The position numbers were made by a program, and so were the translations under genes. A DNA stretch of 64,000 nt. Source: an uncultured Actinomycetota bacterium. Its GTDB lineage: Bacteria > Actinomycetota > Actinomycetes > Mycobacteriales > Mycobacteriaceae. Of the stretch, positions 8,304 through 19,195 are shown in pieces. Location: contig CAVZZD010000011.1 in the NCBI GenBank assembly GCA_963779655.1, forward strand, positions 382 through 64,381. The letters run 5' to 3'. A model generated the notes under the pieces. That model saw only the letters and a program-made list of their open reading frames with translations, was not told the DNA's origin and did no database searches. Every line of letters starts with the position of its first letter. Position 1 is the first letter of the stretch.

Positions 8304-8652
8304 TGTCAGCACGCGTCCTCTTGAACGATCACCGAAGCCGACATCGTCGGCACCTCCGACAGCTGGGTACGGATCGCATCCTCGAACCCATCCACCGCCG
8401 ACCCCGCAGGCTTGCGCTCATACTTCGGCGGCCCGTCAGAGGCCAACGCCGCCCGCACGGTGTTGCGGGCGATCCCCAACGTCCTGGCGATCAACTTGAT
8501 GGGTAATCCCTCCGCTCGATGCAGCCTGCGGATCTCAGCCCCCTCCGCTGACAACAACTCGCTTCTCCTCTCGGCTCGTAAGCCGAGACTCAGACGAAGG
8601 GGGTCAGAACCCACCGCGTCGACACGGGGTCAGTTTTCAGACGACGCCGACA
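8304..8652 (-). mobile_element. IS21-family remnant (left end + truncated istA)
   Basis: End TGTCGGCGTCGTCTGAAAACTGACCCC with internal TGACCC repeats; AEIRRLHRAEGLPIKLIARTLGIARNTVR HTH, truncated. Confidence 0.8.
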
Positions 8653-10991: not shown

Positions 10992-12020
10992 CTACGGCCT
11001 TTTCCCCGGCGGTCCGACTTCTGTCGCAGTGCTGCCCGGGGTGTGGTCCACTAGGACTGCGCCGTCGCACTGATCGCCGAGTGTCTGAAGCGCGATATCG
11101 GCGCCGCCGCAGGTGAGGCGCACGATCTGCGCCAATTGATCGGGGGTGTCAGATTGCAGGTAGTGATCGGCGCTCGGGACGATCCAGTAACGGTTTGTGC
11201 CGGGTTTGTGCTTGAGAAAGGCCTGCCACACGTAGTTCGCGACGCGCACCGGCGAGATGTTGTCGTGCAGACCCCACACCAGCGTGGTGTTGATGTCGCT
11301 GGTCGAAAGTGCAGTGAGCCAACTAGTTTCATCGGCGGCGCGCTCGTGCAAGTATTGAATCGTATCGGGCAGCACGCGGACGCCGTCGTTGTAGGCAAAG
11401 CATTTCGCCAGGGCGGCGATCTCGGGGTCGGCCAGGGTGCGCCGCGGCATGAAGGTGCTCGCGCCCAGCCCTGCCGCCAACATCTCCGGCGTCGTCGCCG
11501 CCGCGGTGGCACGTCCGGTGGTGATATCGAGCAGCGCGGTTTGGAACGCGGTGAGATTGCCCAGTGGCAGGTAGATGTTGGCGTTGGTGATGATGACGTC
11601 CGTCGGTACCAACTGTGGATGTTCGGCTGCGAGTATGCCTAGGGCGATCATCCCGACACTGCTACCGCGGTCGTGGGTGATCATCGCGTAGTCGGTGAGA
11701 TTCCATACCTGGCTGATGGCGTGGACAAGTAGACGCGCGTCGTCATACAACGAATAGACATAGGGTGCTGGTGGCTTGTCCGAGCACCCGTAGCCGGGGA
11801 AGTCCAGCAGGAAGATGTCGAACTCGGCGCCGAGTTCACCTACGAGTGCGAAATAGTCGATGCTCGAGGTGGGGAAGCCGTGAACACACACCAGGGCAGG
11901 TGCGCCCGGCGTGCCAGCGCGCCGGGTGAACACGGTGACCTCCTGTCTTTCGTTGGCTGGGGTTGACGACTGCCAGCCAAATGTCGTTGCGCCGCTGGAC
12001 CATTGCGCGAAGATGTCCAT
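10992..12020 (-). CDS. alpha/beta fold hydrolase (epoxide hydrolase/MEST-like)
   Basis: HGFPTSS, DFPGYG, HDRG, ADHY. Confidence 0.85.
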   Translation of the reverse strand: MDIFAQWSSGATTFGWQSSTPANERQEVTVFTRRAGTPGAPALVCVHGFPTSSIDYFALVGELGAEFDIFLLDFPGYGCSDKPPAPYVYSLYDDARLLVHAISQVWNLTDYAMITHDRGSSVGMIALGILAAEHPQLVPTDVIITNANIYLPLGNLTAFQTALLDITTGRATAAATTPEMLAAGLGASTFMPRRTLADPEIAALAKCFAYNDGVRVLPDTIQYLHERAADETSWLTALSTSDINTTLVWGLHDNISPVRVANYVWQAFLKHKPGTNRYWIVPSADHYLQSDTPDQLAQIVRLTCGGADIALQTLGDQCDGAVLVDHTPGSTATEVGPPGKRP

Positions 12021-12081
12021 GAGTGTCCGCCCTTTCCGACCGCTTTCGGTCCTGACGATAGTTCGGAGGCCCACAACCCCA

Positions 12082-12154
12082 CTCGAGCCCGCATCAAATC
12101 CGCTCGGGCGGCTTCCCGGGTGCGGACCAGATCTCGGGCGGCCTCCTCGGCCGC
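12082..12154 (-). pseudogene. IS110-family transposase fragment
   Basis: EEAARDLVRTREAARADLMRAR, typical of the IS110 coiled-coil region. Confidence 0.55.
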
Positions 12155-12620
12155 AACAAAGGTGACTCCGTATCTCGCAGTCGTCAACGTTTCAGGCGGG
12201 ACATTTGAACCTCGAGCAAGTAAAAGCGATTGAGGCCACAGGAAAAGAGATCGAAAGATATGACCTCGCCGCCGGCGATATTGTTCTGACCGAAGGCGGC
12301 GACCCTGACAAACTCGGCCGCGGGACCGTGTGGCGGGATGAATTACCGCTCTGCCTTCAGCAAAATCACATCTTTCGAGTGCGGATGCGCGATGATCGGC
12401 TTACCTTTCGGCGTACCTGGCGAGCAGACCTGCCAAGGACTATTTCTTCCGGTATGCGAAGCAGACTACAGGTATCGCGTCGATCAATATGACCCAGCTG
12501 CGCATCACTCCGATCTATATTCGCCCCTATGAAAACAACAATGGTATTTGAGCCGCGTTCGCAAAATCAGTGAGCAGCAGCTGACGGCCAAAACGCAGGC
12601 AATCTCGCTCCCGCTGCCGT
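12155..12620 (+). pseudogene. type I restriction-modification specificity subunit (HsdS) fragment
   Basis: PYLAVVNV..GDIVLTEGGDPDKLGRG..QNHIFRVR..AKQTTGIASINMTQL across frameshifts. Confidence 0.8.
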
Positions 12621-13129
12621 CGGCGTCGCCCGCGGGGACTTTGGAGTGTGAGGGCACGCTGATGCTTTCGGGTTCCCGCGGATGCGTTCGGTGGTCGCCA
12701 GCTGCTGCCGGTTGAGCATGTCGGGTGGGTGTGCCATGACACCTTCAGCGCGGCACCTTTTTCAAGCTAACTGCGCAGCATGACGGTTAGCTGAGCTGGG
12801 CGCTTGGGTCAGCGTGTCGACATTTGGGACTTCACCTGATTTCTGCTGATCCAGTGGCCCGCGGGAATACATGGCAATGCGACGGCGCCGAGTTGATTTC
12901 GCGGCCCACCAATTAGAGCTTGACAAAACCTGATCAATTCCATCAAGAGAGCTGTACATAACCTGTACGAGTACCGCGGAATGGGTAGTCGAGTAGTCAG
13001 CTACCCTATGCAACCGCTGGATACCGCCCATAAAGTCCGACATGTTCTAGTCGAAATCTGGCATCGGACAGGATTTTGGGTCACACAGTCAAAATTCTGG
13101 GTCAGTTACAGTCATCTGGGGGGATTCAA

Positions 13130-13340
13130 ATGGGTCAACTAGCGTGGCGTTTTTGTAACCAGTATTTCTCGATGTTATTCGACGGTTCCCTCAACAAGAA
13201 GGCATGTCCGGCAGCCGGCGGGCGCACAGCGCAGGGATTCATGTTCGTGCTCCCGCACGATATCCCCACTGAACAAGACGTCATGACTTTTGGCTCGGGG
13301 CCTTTAACGTGCGGGCTACCACTGAGTGGATCAGCACACC
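13130..13340 (+). pseudogene. degenerate Cys-motif repeat domain fragment (WRFC...FDG...CPAGG-type)
   Basis: QLAWRFCNQYFSMLFDGSLNKKACPAAGGRTAQGFMFVLPHD resembles a repeat I recall from actinobacterial proteins; Cys/His partly lost. Confidence 0.35.
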
Positions 13341-13423
13341 CGGTGGTCAAATCCGTTGGTACGAAACGAAATTGCGCCAAGTCTTCTTCCCTCCATCCGA
13401 TCTAAGACCAAGGAGATCGATCC

Positions 13424-13894
13424 ATGTCTCGAAACGCTCGGTGGTTTGTCGGCTGCGCCGGCGCGGCGCTCATTGGCGTCGTCTCGCTGACATCGGTGAC
13501 ACTGCAGGCCCAAGCCACCCCCAACGTCGGTGTGACCGGCGAGCAGCTCAGCAAAGCGACAGTCGAACACGTCCGCATCGCTCCTGATGGCCCGGTCGAC
13601 ATCCAGTTCTCCGTCCTCACCGTCGAACCGGGCGGAAGCGTCGGCTGGCACACACATCCAGGTGACGTGCTCGTGAACGTCGCCGACGGAACCGCGACCC
13701 TATACGAGGCCGACGACACGCAATGCCAGCCGGCCACTTTCGGCGTCGGGCAAGGCTGGGTCGAGCACCCGAACCATGTGCACACCGTCCACAACCAGAC
13801 GGACAAGCCGCTGAAGCTCGACGTCGTTCTGATCACGCCGGCAGGCATGGATCCTGGCGTCAGCGCACCGAACCCGGGCAACTGCCCGTTCTGA
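13424..13894 (+). CDS. secreted cupin-domain protein
   Basis: RBS AAGGAG; signal peptide ending AQA; PGGSVGWHTHPG and EHPNHVH metal-binding motifs. Confidence 0.88.
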   Translation: MSRNARWFVGCAGAALIGVVSLTSVTLQAQATPNVGVTGEQLSKATVEHVRIAPDGPVDIQFSVLTVEPGGSVGWHTHPGDVLVNVADGTATLYEADDTQCQPATFGVGQGWVEHPNHVHTVHNQTDKPLKLDVVLITPAGMDPGVSAPNPGNCPF

Positions 13895-13929
13895 AACCCG
13901 TCCGCGCTCAACCGAAAGGAGGTGACCAA

Positions 13930-13968
13930 ATGATTGCTCCACCCGTTTTCCGTGGCCCGACCTGCTGA
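13930..13968 (+). CDS. 12-aa peptide MIAPPVFRGPTC, candidate RiPP precursor
   Basis: Near-perfect SD AAAGGAGGTGA 4 nt before the ATG; ends in Cys; followed by a hairpin and a LanD-like flavoprotein gene. Confidence 0.7.
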   Translation: MIAPPVFRGPTC

Positions 13969-13973
13969 GCCCC

Positions 13974-14011
13974 GAGGGGGGTCGCCCAGCCACCGCCGGG
14001 CGACCCCCCTC
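13974..14011 (+). terminator. 14-bp GC-rich stem-loop after the small ORF (partial terminator or mRNA stabiliser)
   Basis: GAGGGGGGTCGCCC-N10-GGGCGACCCCCCTC perfect inverted repeat, no U-tract. Confidence 0.7.
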
Positions 14012-14045
14012 CCGATCTGCCAAGCCCAACCCGAGGAGAAAAGTC

Positions 14046-14588
14046 ATGCAACAAGGTGCGCTCGTCGTGATCGCTGCAGGTGCCAGCGCATCCCTGGTTT
14101 TGCCGCTCTACCTGACAGAGCTTCGCGAAACCCAAGGTGAGATCGTTGTCCTGCTCACGCGGAGCGCGGAACGGTTCGTGCCGCGAGAAGTGGTCGGCTG
14201 GCTGGCTGACGAAGTCATCACCTCCGACAGCCCTACTCTCAATCCGATAAAACTCGCCCTGACCTCTAAGGGCATCGTGGTGCTCCCCGCGACAGCCCAC
14301 ATGCTGGCCGCCAGGGCGCTGGGACTCGCGTCGACTCCTGCTGCCACGACGCTGCTCGCGGCCCCCCGCCCATGCCTATGGTTTCCCCACATGAACAAGG
14401 TGATGTGGGACAAGCCCGTCATCCAACGGCACGTGGCGAGCCTGCGAGAGGACGGCGAGACTGTGGTGGAGCCGGAATCCCGTGTCGTGTACGAAATGTG
14501 GCGAGGCGCCCACGGCGACGGTGTCTCGATGGCCCCTCCGGACAAGGCCGCCGTCATTGTCAGCGAATGGCTCGATGAGCGCCCGTGA
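14046..14588 (+). CDS. HFCD flavoprotein, LanD/EpiD-like peptidyl-cysteine decarboxylase
   Basis: VLPATAHM (PASANT motif), FPHMNKVMW (PxMNxxMW motif); no ACG motif of PPC decarboxylases; RBS GAGGAG. Confidence 0.85.
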   Translation: MQQGALVVIAAGASASLVLPLYLTELRETQGEIVVLLTRSAERFVPREVVGWLADEVITSDSPTLNPIKLALTSKGIVVLPATAHMLAARALGLASTPAATTLLAAPRPCLWFPHMNKVMWDKPVIQRHVASLREDGETVVEPESRVVYEMWRGAHGDGVSMAPPDKAAVIVSEWLDERP

Positions 14589-15822
14589 GATATTGCGGCA
14601 GCGCGACTTTCGGCTGCTGTTCATCGGCCAGACCGCGTCTGGGGCCGGCGACGCCCCCGCCATGCTGGCGATCACCTTTTTCGTATTGGAGATCGGCGGA
14701 TCGGCTACTGCGCTCGGTTGCGTGCTCGCCGCGCGTTTCGTGCCGCTGACCGGACTTCTCCTGCTCGGTGGGGTACTCGCAGACCGATTTCCGCGCCGGG
14801 AGCTGATGATCGCGTCGGACCTCGCGCGGGCGGCCACGCAGGCAGTGCTGGCTGTCCTGCTCCTAATTGGCACAGCGCAACTGTGGCAGGTCATCGCACT
14901 GCAGGTGATCTGCGGAAGCGCGGAAGCGTTCTTTACACCGGCGCTCGGCGGGATCCTGCCGCAAATCGTGCCGTCATCGTCGTTGCGCGAGGCGAACGCG
15001 CTGGTATCGACGTCCACCAGCCTGCTCCGCGTCGCCGGCCCGGCGGTGGGCGCGGTGCTCATCGCGGCGGCGGGGCCGGGCGCGGCCGTGGCAATGGACG
15101 CCGCCAGCTTCCTGGTCAGCGCCGTTGCGCTGATGGGCGTACGCAGAATGTCCGCAACCGAGCGAACAACACGCGAACCCCTGTTGGTTGCGCTGCGTAC
15201 GGGCTGGAGCGAAGTGCGTTCCCGAACCTGGGTCTGGGCGTCGATCGCGAACTTCACCGTATTCAGCGCAGTGGCGTGGCCCGCTGTGCTGGTGCTGGGC
15301 CCGCTGGCCGCAAAGCGGGACTTCGGCGGCCCGGCCGGCTGGGCGGTGATCATGGCGACCTTCGCCGGCGGCGCGATGCTCGGCAGCGCGGTGGCGATGC
15401 GTGTACCCGCCCGCTCCCCGGCGACCGCCTGCGCGGTGCTGCTGGCTGTCGCAGCAGCGCGTCCGGCGATGCTGGTCAGCGGGTTCGGGCTGCCGACTAT
15501 CGGCGTGTACAGCGTGATGTCCGGGGCTGCGATGTCGATGGCGATCGTGTACTGGGAAACCCTGTTGCAGGAACGGATACCACTGACGGTTCTCTCCCGG
15601 GTCAGGTCGATCGACGAGTTCGGCTCGACGCTGCTCACGCCGGTCGCCTACGTTGCCATCGGTCCGCTGGCGGCCTACATCGGGCTGACCGGGGGAATGT
15701 TGCTGCTGGCTGCCGTTTCCGTCGCCGCCAGCGTCGTGACAGCCGCGGTTCCGGCAGTAAGACATCTGTCCGACGGGAAAGTCCCAGTTGCCTTAAGGCC
15801 CAAGGCGACGTCTCGTTTCTAG
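14575..15822 (+). CDS. MFS transporter (DHA3/macrolide-efflux-like)
   Basis: About 12 hydrophobic segments; GGVLADRFPRR motif A; overlaps the flavoprotein stop. Confidence 0.9.
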   Translation: MSAREILRQRDFRLLFIGQTASGAGDAPAMLAITFFVLEIGGSATALGCVLAARFVPLTGLLLLGGVLADRFPRRELMIASDLARAATQAVLAVLLLIGTAQLWQVIALQVICGSAEAFFTPALGGILPQIVPSSSLREANALVSTSTSLLRVAGPAVGAVLIAAAGPGAAVAMDAASFLVSAVALMGVRRMSATERTTREPLLVALRTGWSEVRSRTWVWASIANFTVFSAVAWPAVLVLGPLAAKRDFGGPAGWAVIMATFAGGAMLGSAVAMRVPARSPATACAVLLAVAAARPAMLVSGFGLPTIGVYSVMSGAAMSMAIVYWETLLQERIPLTVLSRVRSIDEFGSTLLTPVAYVAIGPLAAYIGLTGGMLLLAAVSVAASVVTAAVPAVRHLSDGKVPVALRPKATSRF

Positions 15823-16394: not shown

Positions 16395-16581
16395 TCTGCT
16401 CATCTAGGAATCTCGTGCCTCCACGATCACCGATCGTGCCTCAAATCCAAACCGAGACTCGTACGCTCCTTTACTGGGGGTCTCCCACATCTGTGGCTCT
16501 ACCGGCCAGGACGCGCGTGCTGACGGCAGCCCCCACCGTCACATATCCGTCCGGAGCCAGTTGAGACCGAAGGAGTCAACG

Positions 16582-17988
16582 ATGATCAGAACGCACACGG
16601 TTGTCGCGGGGGAGACGCTGTCGGCATTGGCGTTGCGCTTCTATGGTGACGCGGAACTACATCGGCTGATCACCACGGCCAGCGGCATCGCCACCCCAGG
16701 CGACGCCACCCTGGCCAAGGGGGTCGCCGATACCGACCTCGTCGATGTGGGGGAACGGCTGGCCTTCCCCGACTTCACGCGATACGCCGTTGTCGCCGGG
16801 GACACGCTGTCGGCGTTGGCTGCGCGTTTCTACGGTGACGCCTCGCTCTATCCGCTGATCGCCACCGCCAGCGGGATCACCAATCCCGACGCGATCGATG
16901 TGGGGCAATCGCTGATCATCCCGGAAATCACGAGACACACGGTGGTCGCGGGGGACACGTTGTCGGCGTTGGCTGCCCGTTTCTATGGTGACGCGTCCCT
17001 TTACCCGCTGATCGCCGCCGTCAACGGCATCGCCGATCCCGACTCCATCGACGTCGGGCAGTCACTGGTCATATTCGCCGGAGTCAGCGACGGGTTCGGG
17101 CTGACGATCGTGGATCGCAACGAGAACGACCCTCGCTTGAAGTACTACCGGTTCCAGACCAGCGCGATCGGCTGGAATCCCGGCGTCAACGTCCTGCTTC
17201 CCGACGGCTACCAAACCAGCGGACGCACCTATCCCGTCCTTTACATGTTCCACGGCGGCGCCGACGACTTCCGCCAGTTCGACTTTCTGGGCATCCGCGA
17301 CCTGACCGCCGGAAAGCCGATCATCGTCGTGATGCCCGACGGCGGGCACGCGGGCTGGTACTCCAACCCGGTCACCTCGTTCGTCGGCCCGCGGAACTGG
17401 GAGACATTCCACATCGCCCAGCTGCTGCCCTGGATCGAGGCGAATTTCCGAACGTATGCCGAGTACAACGGCCGTGCGGTCGGCGGGTTTTCGATGGGTG
17501 GCTTCGGTGCGCTGAAGTACGCAGCCAAGTACTACGGCCACTTCGCCTCGGTGAGCGCCCACTCCGGCCCGGCGAGTCTGCGCCGCGACTTCGGCCTGGT
17601 CGTGCACTGGGCGAACATCACCTCGGCGGCCCTGGATCTGGCCGGCGGCACCGTCTACGGCGCGCCGTTCTGGAACCAGGCCAGGGTCAGCGCCGACAAT
17701 CCGATCGAGCGGATCGAGAGCTACCGGAACAAGCGGATCTTCCTGGTCGCCGGCACCAGCCCGGACCCGCTCAACTGGTTCGACAGCGTGAACGAGACCC
17801 AGGTCCTGGCCGGCCAGCGGGAGTTCCGCGGACTCCTCCGTAACGCCGGCATCCCGCACGAATGGCATGAGCAGCCCGGCGGCCACATCTTCCGGCCCGA
17901 CATGTTCGCCATCGACATCAACGGCATCATCGCCCGGCTGCGACCGGCGGCTGTCGTGCCAGCCTTTAGTCCGCCGCCGGAGCTGTAA
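16582..17988 (+). CDS. 3x LysM + putative esterase (antigen 85/S-formylglutathione hydrolase-like) fusion
   Basis: Three VVAG(E/D)TLSALAxRFYGD repeats; YPVLYMFHG, GFSMGG, GGH; RBS AAGGAG; no signal peptide. Confidence 0.9.
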   Translation: MIRTHTVVAGETLSALALRFYGDAELHRLITTASGIATPGDATLAKGVADTDLVDVGERLAFPDFTRYAVVAGDTLSALAARFYGDASLYPLIATASGITNPDAIDVGQSLIIPEITRHTVVAGDTLSALAARFYGDASLYPLIAAVNGIADPDSIDVGQSLVIFAGVSDGFGLTIVDRNENDPRLKYYRFQTSAIGWNPGVNVLLPDGYQTSGRTYPVLYMFHGGADDFRQFDFLGIRDLTAGKPIIVVMPDGGHAGWYSNPVTSFVGPRNWETFHIAQLLPWIEANFRTYAEYNGRAVGGFSMGGFGALKYAAKYYGHFASVSAHSGPASLRRDFGLVVHWANITSAALDLAGGTVYGAPFWNQARVSADNPIERIESYRNKRIFLVAGTSPDPLNWFDSVNETQVLAGQREFRGLLRNAGIPHEWHEQPGGHIFRPDMFAIDINGIIARLRPAAVVPAFSPPPEL

Positions 17989-18097
17989 CCGGACAGCGTC
18001 GACCGCGCAGTCGCTGCCGGCGTCGTTCGTCGGGAGAGTGGTTCGCAAACCACTACCTAGAAGGGGGAGATGACTACACGCTCGTGGAGTGGGCCTG

Positions 18098-19195
18098 ATG
18101 GCTAGATACTGGCCACTGGGCACCGGCTGGATCATCACCAGTCCTTTCGGTCCCCGTGCCGGTGGATTCCACGCGGGTACCGATTTCGGATTTCCCGGCG
18201 GGTCAGCCGGCAAGCCGGTTTACGCCTGTGCCAGCGGGACCGTCATCTACGCCGGTGCCGCACAGGGCTACGGCGGGCCGGATCCCGCCGGTTGGCTTGT
18301 CGTCGACCATCCCGCCGCGGTTGGAGGTGGTTGCACCGAATACGGCCACATCATCCGGGAGGTTGCCCGCGGCGACCGCGTGACGGCTGGACAACGTATT
18401 GCCCGCATCAACCCCGACTCGGCCACCAACGGCGGCGTCGCACCGCACGTGCACCTGTCGGTGATGCCGCGCGAGTACAACCCGAAAGCCAAGATCGATC
18501 CGATTCCATGGCTGGCCGGTGCGCTGGAACCACCGGCGGCCGCGACCATCTTCGGCCCGGACATCAGCAACAACAACGGTGTGGTGGACCTCGACCGGGT
18601 CAAGGCCGAGGGCTTCGAGTTCGTGTGGGCGAAAGTCAGTGAGGGTGCCATCTTCCGGGACACCTACTGGCCACGCACCCGCGACTGGGCGCGCAGAATC
18701 GGCCTGATCCTGGCCGGATACCACTACATCCGGACGAGCGATCCGAACCGGCAGGCTGACCTGTTCGTCGACCAGCTCGGCGACAGGTCTGTCCCGGCCA
18801 TGCTCGACTTCGAGGACGGTAGCGGCGGCATCGACAATTTCTGGGCGGTGCTGCAGGCCATCGAGGCCCGTGGCGTGCACGTGGCGCTGTCCTACATCCC
18901 ACGCTGGTACTGGGACCGCATCGGCAGGCCCGACCTGTCGCGGGTGCCCGGCTTGATCCAGTCGAGCTATGTGAGCGGCACCGGCTTCGCATCGGTGCTG
19001 TACCCGGGTGACGGCTCGATCAGGTGGGCAGCGTACGGCGGACGCCAGCCCGACATTCTCCAGTTCACCGATAGGGCGCTGATCGCTGGAAAGAAACTGG
19101 ATGCCAATGCGTTTCGGGGTTCACCTGACCAACTCCGGACGCTGCTCGGACTCCCACCCGAAGCAGACGCCGGAGAAATTGCCCGGAACCTGTGA
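18098..19195 (+). CDS. M23 peptidase + GH25 muramidase (endolysin/lysin A-like)
   Basis: HAGTD and PHVH (M23); DISNNNG, KVSEG, YHY, LDFE, QFT, DAN (GH25). Confidence 0.9.
   Translation: MARYWPLGTGWIITSPFGPRAGGFHAGTDFGFPGGSAGKPVYACASGTVIYAGAAQGYGGPDPAGWLVVDHPAAVGGGCTEYGHIIREVARGDRVTAGQRIARINPDSATNGGVAPHVHLSVMPREYNPKAKIDPIPWLAGALEPPAAATIFGPDISNNNGVVDLDRVKAEGFEFVWAKVSEGAIFRDTYWPRTRDWARRIGLILAGYHYIRTSDPNRQADLFVDQLGDRSVPAMLDFEDGSGGIDNFWAVLQAIEARGVHVALSYIPRWYWDRIGRPDLSRVPGLIQSSYVSGTGFASVLYPGDGSIRWAAYGGRQPDILQFTDRALIAGKKLDANAFRGSPDQLRTLLGLPPEADAGEIARNL

Follow-up and report, generated by a model that had tools for sequence, protein, structure and literature searches.

A conserved actinobacterial cassette of a candidate leaderless Cys-ended peptide, a LanD-type flavoprotein with Pro for the catalytic His, a transporter and a cupin

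Flavoproteins of the LanD type (MrsD, 1P3Y; EpiD, 1G63/1G5Q; MicD of the lipolanthines) are members of the HFCD family that act on peptides ending in Cys, and the enethiol made in the systems described is an intermediate toward a ring. EpiD needs the last four residues of its substrate and CypD the last three, neither needs a leader, and MrsD is strict in substrate (PMC6190514; as for the other papers from which background is cited below, according to the accessible parts of the source). In Streptomyces ureilyticus YC419, the syc cluster (for AviCamCys) encodes a 22-aa precursor (SycA), a major facilitator superfamily (MFS) transporter (SycB), a radical SAM enzyme (SycC) and a LanD-like enzyme (SycD) (PMC10989515), and the largest LanD-centred survey required precursors of 20-100 aa with a T/S-Xn-C motif (PMC11162475). 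The cassette analysed here lies in a 64-kb stretch of DNA from an uncultured Actinomycetota bacterium (contig CAVZZD010000011.1; the stretch is called the window, and all coordinates are positions in it) and comprises a cupin gene, a 12-codon open reading frame (ORF) ending in Cys, a hairpin, a LanD-type flavoprotein gene and an MFS transporter gene. The cassette is real, is conserved among soil actinobacteria and is apparently undescribed. Judged from sequence and from analogy with LanD enzymes, a leaderless peptide would probably be made in excess, oxidatively decarboxylated at its terminal Cys and exported in linear form by the MFS transporter, and an undescribed ring-free modified peptide is the likely product. 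The parts of the cassette in the window were as follows.

13424-13894, + strand: cupin, 156 aa (PF07883, E 4.8e-10; predicted local distance difference test score, pLDDT, of the model 93.8)
13915-13925, + strand: Shine-Dalgarno (SD) sequence of the peptide ORF, AAAGGAGGTGA, within the 35-nt gap after the cupin
13930-13968, + strand: 12-codon ORF MIAPPVFRGPTC, candidate leaderless precursor peptide (from sequence and conservation)
13974-14011, + strand: GC-rich hairpin with a perfect 14-bp stem, without U-tract
14046-14588, + strand: LanD-type HFCD flavoprotein, 180 aa (PF02441)
14575-15822, + strand: MFS transporter, 415 aa (MFS_3 / H+ antiporter type; PF05977/PF07690)

The cassette has in common with the LanD systems the HFCD fold, the flavin-binding and PxMNxxMW motifs, Asn117, the substrate clamp, a Cys-terminated partner peptide and, by prediction, leader-independent recognition; it differs from them by Pro in place of the catalytic His, by a leaderless precursor of 7-12 aa and by the lack of dehydratase and cyclase, and no ring is possible in several short-peptide members. 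Compared with the peptides made by ribosomes and modified after translation (RiPPs) that carry aminovinyl-cysteine (AviCys), namely lanthipeptides, linaridins and thioamitides, it is without leader, dehydratase and general ring motif. In layout it shares with syc four genes, for a short Cys-ended precursor, a LanD-like enzyme, an MFS transporter and one metalloprotein, and the absence of a dehydratase (for syc, in the accessible part of the source), but the metalloprotein here is a likely secreted cupin and not a cytoplasmic radical SAM enzyme, and the precursor is half the size and has no conserved ring partner residue. For cypemycin, a linaridin, the enzyme CypD does its work with Asn80 where the His would be, and three residues at the C-terminus are all that it needs; the flavoprotein matches it weakly (NF033753, 22.8 bits against a cut-off of 215), and linaridin systems use long precursors together with enzymes for dehydration. 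Biarylitides are made from a five-residue precursor by one P450, and the minimal layout of a tiny precursor beside one enzyme is alike, whereas enzyme and chemistry are unrelated. The cupin resembles the three-His thiol dioxygenases (cysteine dioxygenase, CDO, family) in its predicted ligands, three His without a fourth Glu/His, and differs from them in its likely secretion and predicted disulfide.

The layout reported in the initial annotation was confirmed in all its parts: a Cys-ended ORF below the size cut-off of the ORF list with a near-perfect SD, a 14-bp hairpin after it, an HFCD flavoprotein coupled to an MFS exporter (the MFS ATG at 14575 overlaps the flavoprotein stop by 14 nt) and, 35 bp upstream on the same strand, a cupin whose signal peptide was read by eye. 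The stem begins 5 nt past the peptide stop codon and leaves the flavoprotein SD uncovered, and its stability (z = -3.84) was reached in 0/200 shuffles. It was not listed by the terminator scan because it has no U-tract, and it is likely to raise the ratio of peptide to enzyme, as an mRNA stabiliser or by terminating transcription in part. The promoter scan of the window found no sigma-70-type promoter, no conserved upstream regulatory motif was found in nine aligned loci, and no Rfam family was matched, the best hit scoring 23.8 bits (E 0.061) where the cut-off is 75. Short pieces of soil metatranscriptomes (four assemblies) covering the cupin, peptide, flavoprotein and MFS were not used as support; sequence outside the cassette is covered too, and carried-over DNA is a possible source.

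Two collection scans gave 151 loci (compared loci are given L-numbers, and the source genome is G000), and the 105 with a member of the flavoprotein family were examined; more remote HFCDs were left out, as were three matches that had hardly any DNA upstream. The loci cannot be counted as independent, near-identical sets being formed by five Nocardia loci and by three metagenome contigs. When homologous loci were checked for a Cys-ended short ORF, cupin and MFS, as the initial annotation had proposed, the set was found to be kept together with the hairpin, the MFS in most loci. An SD-led, Cys-ended ORF of 7-12 codons was present in 23/23 cupin-defined loci (window included), lying 60-140 nt before the flavoprotein in the cupin-bearing loci; L012 and L037 have the peptide and no cupin, and one further complete cassette was found on a Rhodococcus plasmid. 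In the 11.5 million strand-bases of the source genome, six ORFs start with ATG, encode 6-14 aa, have an SD match of at least 6 and end in Cys, the chance of such a Cys-ended ORF being about 1e-4 per 200 nt, and only two short ORFs of this genome have a 10/10 SD match. The 16 distinct peptides (for example, MIETGVDDGPTC, MVETAVGGQTC, MITVIDPGNTC, MRRPVQPQC, MFAIKPPPVC, MKDFAIVC and MIAPPRC) are unannotated in RefSeq, and their only invariant residues are Met and the terminal Cys. The GGAGG core of the SD was invariant in eight aligned loci, and a strong stem followed the peptide in 25/25 loci, with unrelated stem sequences in distant loci. Tandem peptide copies were found in L006 (two), L007 (three) and L185 (two), every copy being preceded by an SD of its own, while only one hairpin is present, behind the final copy; in L007 and L185 the copies differ only synonymously (two changes and one change, respectively). 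The flavoproteins of the window and L081 are 96% identical and their peptides are different; this change of the peptide middle between such similar enzymes fits a carrier as well as a strain-specific signal.

The flavoprotein is LanD-like, as had been proposed from its sequence: its best matches by sequence (E 6e-24) and by fold were MrsD and EpiD, ahead of CoaBC and HAL3, and its predicted structure (pLDDT 94) gave template modelling (TM) scores of 0.88 with MrsD and 0.86 with EpiD. It belongs to a distinct family of 92 matches at 46-98% identity before a gap in score, 82 of which were aligned. The PATAH motif (81-85) is kept, position 85 being N in 58/82 and H in 22/82 members, as is the PHMNKVMW motif (114-121) with Asn117 (P114, N117, M120 and W121 in 78-81/82), and the flavin motifs and the substrate clamp are retained. 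The protein stands alone (180 aa) without a CoaB fusion, and its only Cys is at 110, with none in the clamp region.

Three architectures accounted for 99/105 family loci, and six loci fit none of them: 24 are short-peptide loci, 58 form what is called group B here, and 17 carry a class III synthetase (LanKC; NF038151, E 6e-197 for the one scanned). In group B, a Cys-ended precursor of 24-29 aa, of the type MKKITVRKTGSIKLT-core-C, is encoded in a separate and nearly always divergent operon. In the LanKC loci, a precursor ending in SxxSxxC was found in 12/12 with enough upstream DNA; this is the avionin motif, which needs an enethiol (PMC7540663). Because a Cys-ended peptide goes with all three architectures, this comparison of loci links the Pro-type enzyme to a terminal Cys three times, in settings that are unrelated. 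Quick trees only were made, and their root is uncertain; the short-peptide enzymes fell outside the clade of LanKC and group B enzymes with an SH-aLRT (Shimodaira-Hasegawa-like approximate likelihood ratio test) support of 89 in the first and 99 in the second tree (58/97 rows, with group B thinned and distant outgroups dropped), so that they do not appear to be a recent remnant of a LanKC cluster.

Group B (L013-L114, e.g. L017:1587-5820, minus strand) combines the His-to-Pro flavoprotein with a precursor of the MKKITIRKTGSIKLTTSAPLYCTDCC type and is in its own right a second system poor in dehydratases. Its loci encode a 400-aa membrane protein with HExxH and no Pfam or NCBIfam match (39/58), a 710-aa tetratricopeptide repeat (TPR) protein (48/58), a large LuxR-type regulator (47/58) and a flavin reductase (35/58), and LanM is nearby in only eight; this gene content resembles that of a module for peptide signalling or of a new RiPP type. 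The LanKC-flavoprotein-MFS loci (L019, L035, L041, L043, L049, L051, L053, L054, L058, L060, L063 and L109) have precursors of 38-46 aa that end in SxxSxxC and contain an extra internal Cys, and are likely to encode avionin-type class III lanthipeptides using the Pro-type enzyme. Family flavoproteins in contexts outside the three architectures were found in L046, L068, L069 and L116, and L074-L077 form a neighbouring clade in which KPS/RPS replaces the His motif.

Two Arg, a run of hydrophobic residues (hydropathy over 15 residues up to 1.9) and AQA at 29-31 characterise the N-terminus of the cupin; residues 1-31 are signal-like, from which secretion is predicted by eye as likely, and a similar N-terminus was seen by eye in all full-length members. 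The predicted metal ligands His76 and His78 are invariant and His120 is kept in at least 90% of 27 aligned sequences; the fourth ligand of TM1459 aligns to Val82, and motif 1 has no fourth ligand. Cys101 and Cys154 are invariant and likely to form a disulfide. The fold match to CDO (Z 10.2, root-mean-square deviation 2.9, 101 aligned) was tied with those to many cupins, auxin-binding protein, hydroxynitrile lyase and uncharacterised cupins matching equally, and no specific function was singled out by the fold searches and the ESM Atlas. The cupin is present in 0/81 other loci of the flavoprotein family, and an HFCD gene or short Cys-ended ORF was found within about 1.5 kb of 0/29 unrelated cupin loci (0/27 without the unpublished genomes G569 and G448), so the peptide tracks the flavoprotein and not the cupin. 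Cupin and flavoprotein diverge in step (Spearman 0.78, 19 loci, kin not independent). Since its family is widespread outside the cassette yet co-diverges within it, the cupin is regarded as a recruited, usual but dispensable partner that would meet the product only after export. L156-L184 contain a widespread, likely secreted three-His cupin family with a conserved Cys pair, and the source genome has a second cupin copy (G000:C1:413439-413867).

Hosts of the cassette are recorded as Actinomycetes, Acidimicrobiia and Solirubrobacteraceae, with Nocardia vinacea, Kibdelosporangium banguiense and Rhodococcus sp. ZPP as cultured carriers. The cassette is accessory and likely mobile, because its flanking genes vary between genera, the enzyme occurs in 0/399 same-genus genomes scored (one more was not scorable) and in 2/400 genomes of the same taxonomic family, and one copy is plasmid-borne. 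The MFS gene is directly downstream in 20/25 loci. ECF (extracytoplasmic function) sigma or LuxR-type regulators flank L010, L029, L083 and L084, and not the window. The initial annotation had seen no dehydratase or cyclase gene at the locus, and this was upheld: among 90 flank proteins of 17 loci, about one quarter of which have no Pfam match, none matched a family of lanthipeptide dehydratases or cyclases, of radical SAM enzymes or of YcaO proteins, and no dehydratase was found in the window flanks scanned with Pfam. Neither a peptidase nor a flavin reductase is conserved among the flank proteins of the short-peptide loci.

AviCys is excluded by these sequences as a general product, because no dehydratase is encoded near the cassette and 4/16 peptides have neither Ser nor Thr. 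The earlier judgement that AviCys formation is unlikely is thus supported; the peptides also have no leader. T/S-x(2-6)-C fits 7/16 peptides, and 9/16, the window's included, are without the motif; the only Thr of the window's peptide adjoins Cys. In the mechanism proposed, the hairpin would let the peptide mRNA exceed the enzyme mRNA, and the tandem copies of three loci would likewise raise peptide over enzyme. The clamp would bind the last three or four residues, a leader being unneeded, and the flavin would oxidise the thiol with loss of CO2 to give a C-terminal aminoenethiol (-46 Da), as expected from LanD chemistry. Since the peptide offers no dehydro residue for attack, a linear product would remain, either the enethiol itself or the peptide aldehyde left when H2S is lost (-62 Da); enethiols that are not cyclised undergo hydrolysis to aldehydes (PMC10989515; 10.1101/2020.02.13.947028), so the end product may be the aldehyde. 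Either form would be exported by the MFS transporter and bound or oxidised by the cupin outside the cell. In the least certain steps, the modified C-terminus would be the working end, as a soft-metal ligand or a signal handled by the cupin, and the variable N-terminal part a carrier or specificity tag; a biological role as metal ligand or signal is itself rather doubtful.

Several points weigh against this mechanism. The catalytic His of EpiD and MrsD, whose loss was omitted from the initial annotation, is replaced by Pro67, and Pro occupies the position in 82/82 family members, whereas His is kept there in 137/166 wider relatives. This His is essential in EpiD (His67; PMC8549060) and in TvaF (10.1101/2020.02.13.947028), and free enethiols are reactive and thought to be suppressed by cells (PMC7540663). 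The MFS gene is missing in 4/25 loci (L012 and the near-identical L084-L086; 1/25 was not testable), and the cupin is absent from 2/25 short-peptide loci and not cassette-specific, its family occurring in 40/401 genomes of the phylum (a count that includes G569 and G448), with no cassette at the family's loci that were checked. Translation of the peptide ORF is predicted only, and the ORF is accordingly termed a candidate precursor. To our knowledge, no Pro-type enzyme has been assayed so far. Activity of the enzyme on a terminal Cys can nevertheless be argued for, because the flavoprotein is under purifying selection (dN/dS 0.07-0.20, 10 pairs), CypD is active with Asn at the base position (10.1101/2020.02.13.947028), and the Pro-type enzyme occurs in two other Cys-ended settings.

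A different chemistry of the His-to-Pro enzyme on the same peptide is unlikely; the Cys would be decarboxylated without net oxidation, leaving a cysteamine end (-44 Da), or else host peptidases would trim the carrier and sulfide or a small thiol would then be set free, the peptide being a scaffold for a small molecule. Such a change would suit the invariant Asn-Pro that stands where EpiD has Asn-His, the nearly unconstrained middle of the peptide (window versus L081) and the flavin reductase of 35 of the 58 group B loci, but neither this reductase nor a peptidase is conserved in the short-peptide loci, and the proton-donor Cys of phosphopantothenoylcysteine (PPC) decarboxylase, presumably C175, has no counterpart in an enzyme with its only Cys at 110. 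Moreover, the same Pro-type enzyme is found in LanKC clusters whose SxxSxxC precursors need the enethiol (PMC7540663). It is improbable that the short ORF and the hairpin are instead a cysteine-sensing attenuator of the flavoprotein and MFS genes and the peptide is no substrate. Poly-Cys short ORFs reportedly serve as attenuators in mycobacteria, and the stem that begins 5 nt after the stop would agree with such control; those ORFs, however, are leaderless first ORFs with consecutive Cys codons, whereas the ORF here is the second gene of its operon, with a strong SD and a single Cys codon in the last position. The flavoprotein SD lies outside the stem, and the sharing of one hairpin by tandem copies fits dosage. 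In the sister clades, attenuation cannot work, because the genes of the Cys-ended peptides are on the other strand or lie at a distance of about 3 kb, and no Cys-less ORF with a hairpin was found in the 30 loci fetched, of 66 matches listed (60/351 genomes), with a loose pattern that returned ordinary gene starts.

The supply of a dehydratase from elsewhere in the genome for AviCys formation, or the decay of a lanthipeptide cluster, is highly unlikely. LanB and LanC are encoded on another contig of the source genome, the order of MFS and flavoprotein genes is common to LanKC clusters, and the T/S-x(2-6)-C motif fits the seven peptides mentioned above; yet there is no leader for LanB, the window's Thr adjoins Cys, and the LanB and LanC of the source genome cannot explain the four peptides free of Ser and Thr. 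The short-peptide enzymes, outside the clade of LanKC and group B, are moreover spread across three actinobacterial classes and under purifying selection. The class I lanthipeptide genes themselves lie at G000:C7:201303-204503, minus strand, with LanB matched in two pieces, and a quick scan found no convincing precursor. Only a slim chance is given to the flavoprotein being the PPC decarboxylase of the CoA pathway or a non-catalytic flavin- or peptide-binding protein. Its relatives are labelled CoaBC in databases, its best NCBIfam match is coaBC, far below the cut-off (63.5 bits against 219.7; another, 42.9 against 261.4), and without the His the protein might no longer be catalytic. On the other hand, MrsD and EpiD rank first by fold and sequence, a separate and stronger PF02441 match in a 474-aa frame is likely to be the CoaBC of the source genome, and a core pathway does not fit a gene carried by none of the 399 same-genus genomes. 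Sequence and structural model thus support a LanD-type rather than a CoaC-like protein.

If a linear peptide decarboxylated at its terminal Cys is indeed exported, the cassette could, as a tentative proposal, represent a new RiPP class: the smallest LanD-dependent system, in which a His-to-Pro flavoenzyme turns a leaderless 7-12-mer into the final product for export, ending in a free enethiol or an aldehyde. The secreted three-His cupin would then read or oxidise the peptide end, the fast-changing N-terminal residues would be strain-specific signals, and the same enzyme clade would serve the dehydratase-free group B as well. Selection on the enzyme and the terminal Cys without a ring partner implies use for a linear product. 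The family offers a natural His-free LanD clade on which the mechanism as now accepted can be tested, and an apparently tolerant enzyme for modifying C-termini without a leader. Such peptides would be missed by standard genome mining, and at 7-12 aa they lie below the 20-aa floor of the LanD-centred survey. No description of the cassette was found in the literature searched, which is weak evidence of absence as subscription journals are sparsely covered there; the peptide motifs were not found in 12 supplementary files of PMC7794033 or in 4 of PMC11162475, whose precursor table is possibly outside these files, and matching terms were not found in PMC7470986.

Elsewhere in the window, short ORFs at 8306-8614 and 11840-12492 resemble, by eye, fragments of transposase and of a restriction specificity subunit, and the ORF at 12205-12492 has no Pfam match. 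G+C falls to 53-58% over 12000-13500, and the fragment-like ORFs together with this drop suggest that the region next to the cassette is insertion-prone. Downstream, 16561-19195 encodes a LysM-esterase fusion and then a lysin-like gene with peptidase M23 and GH25.

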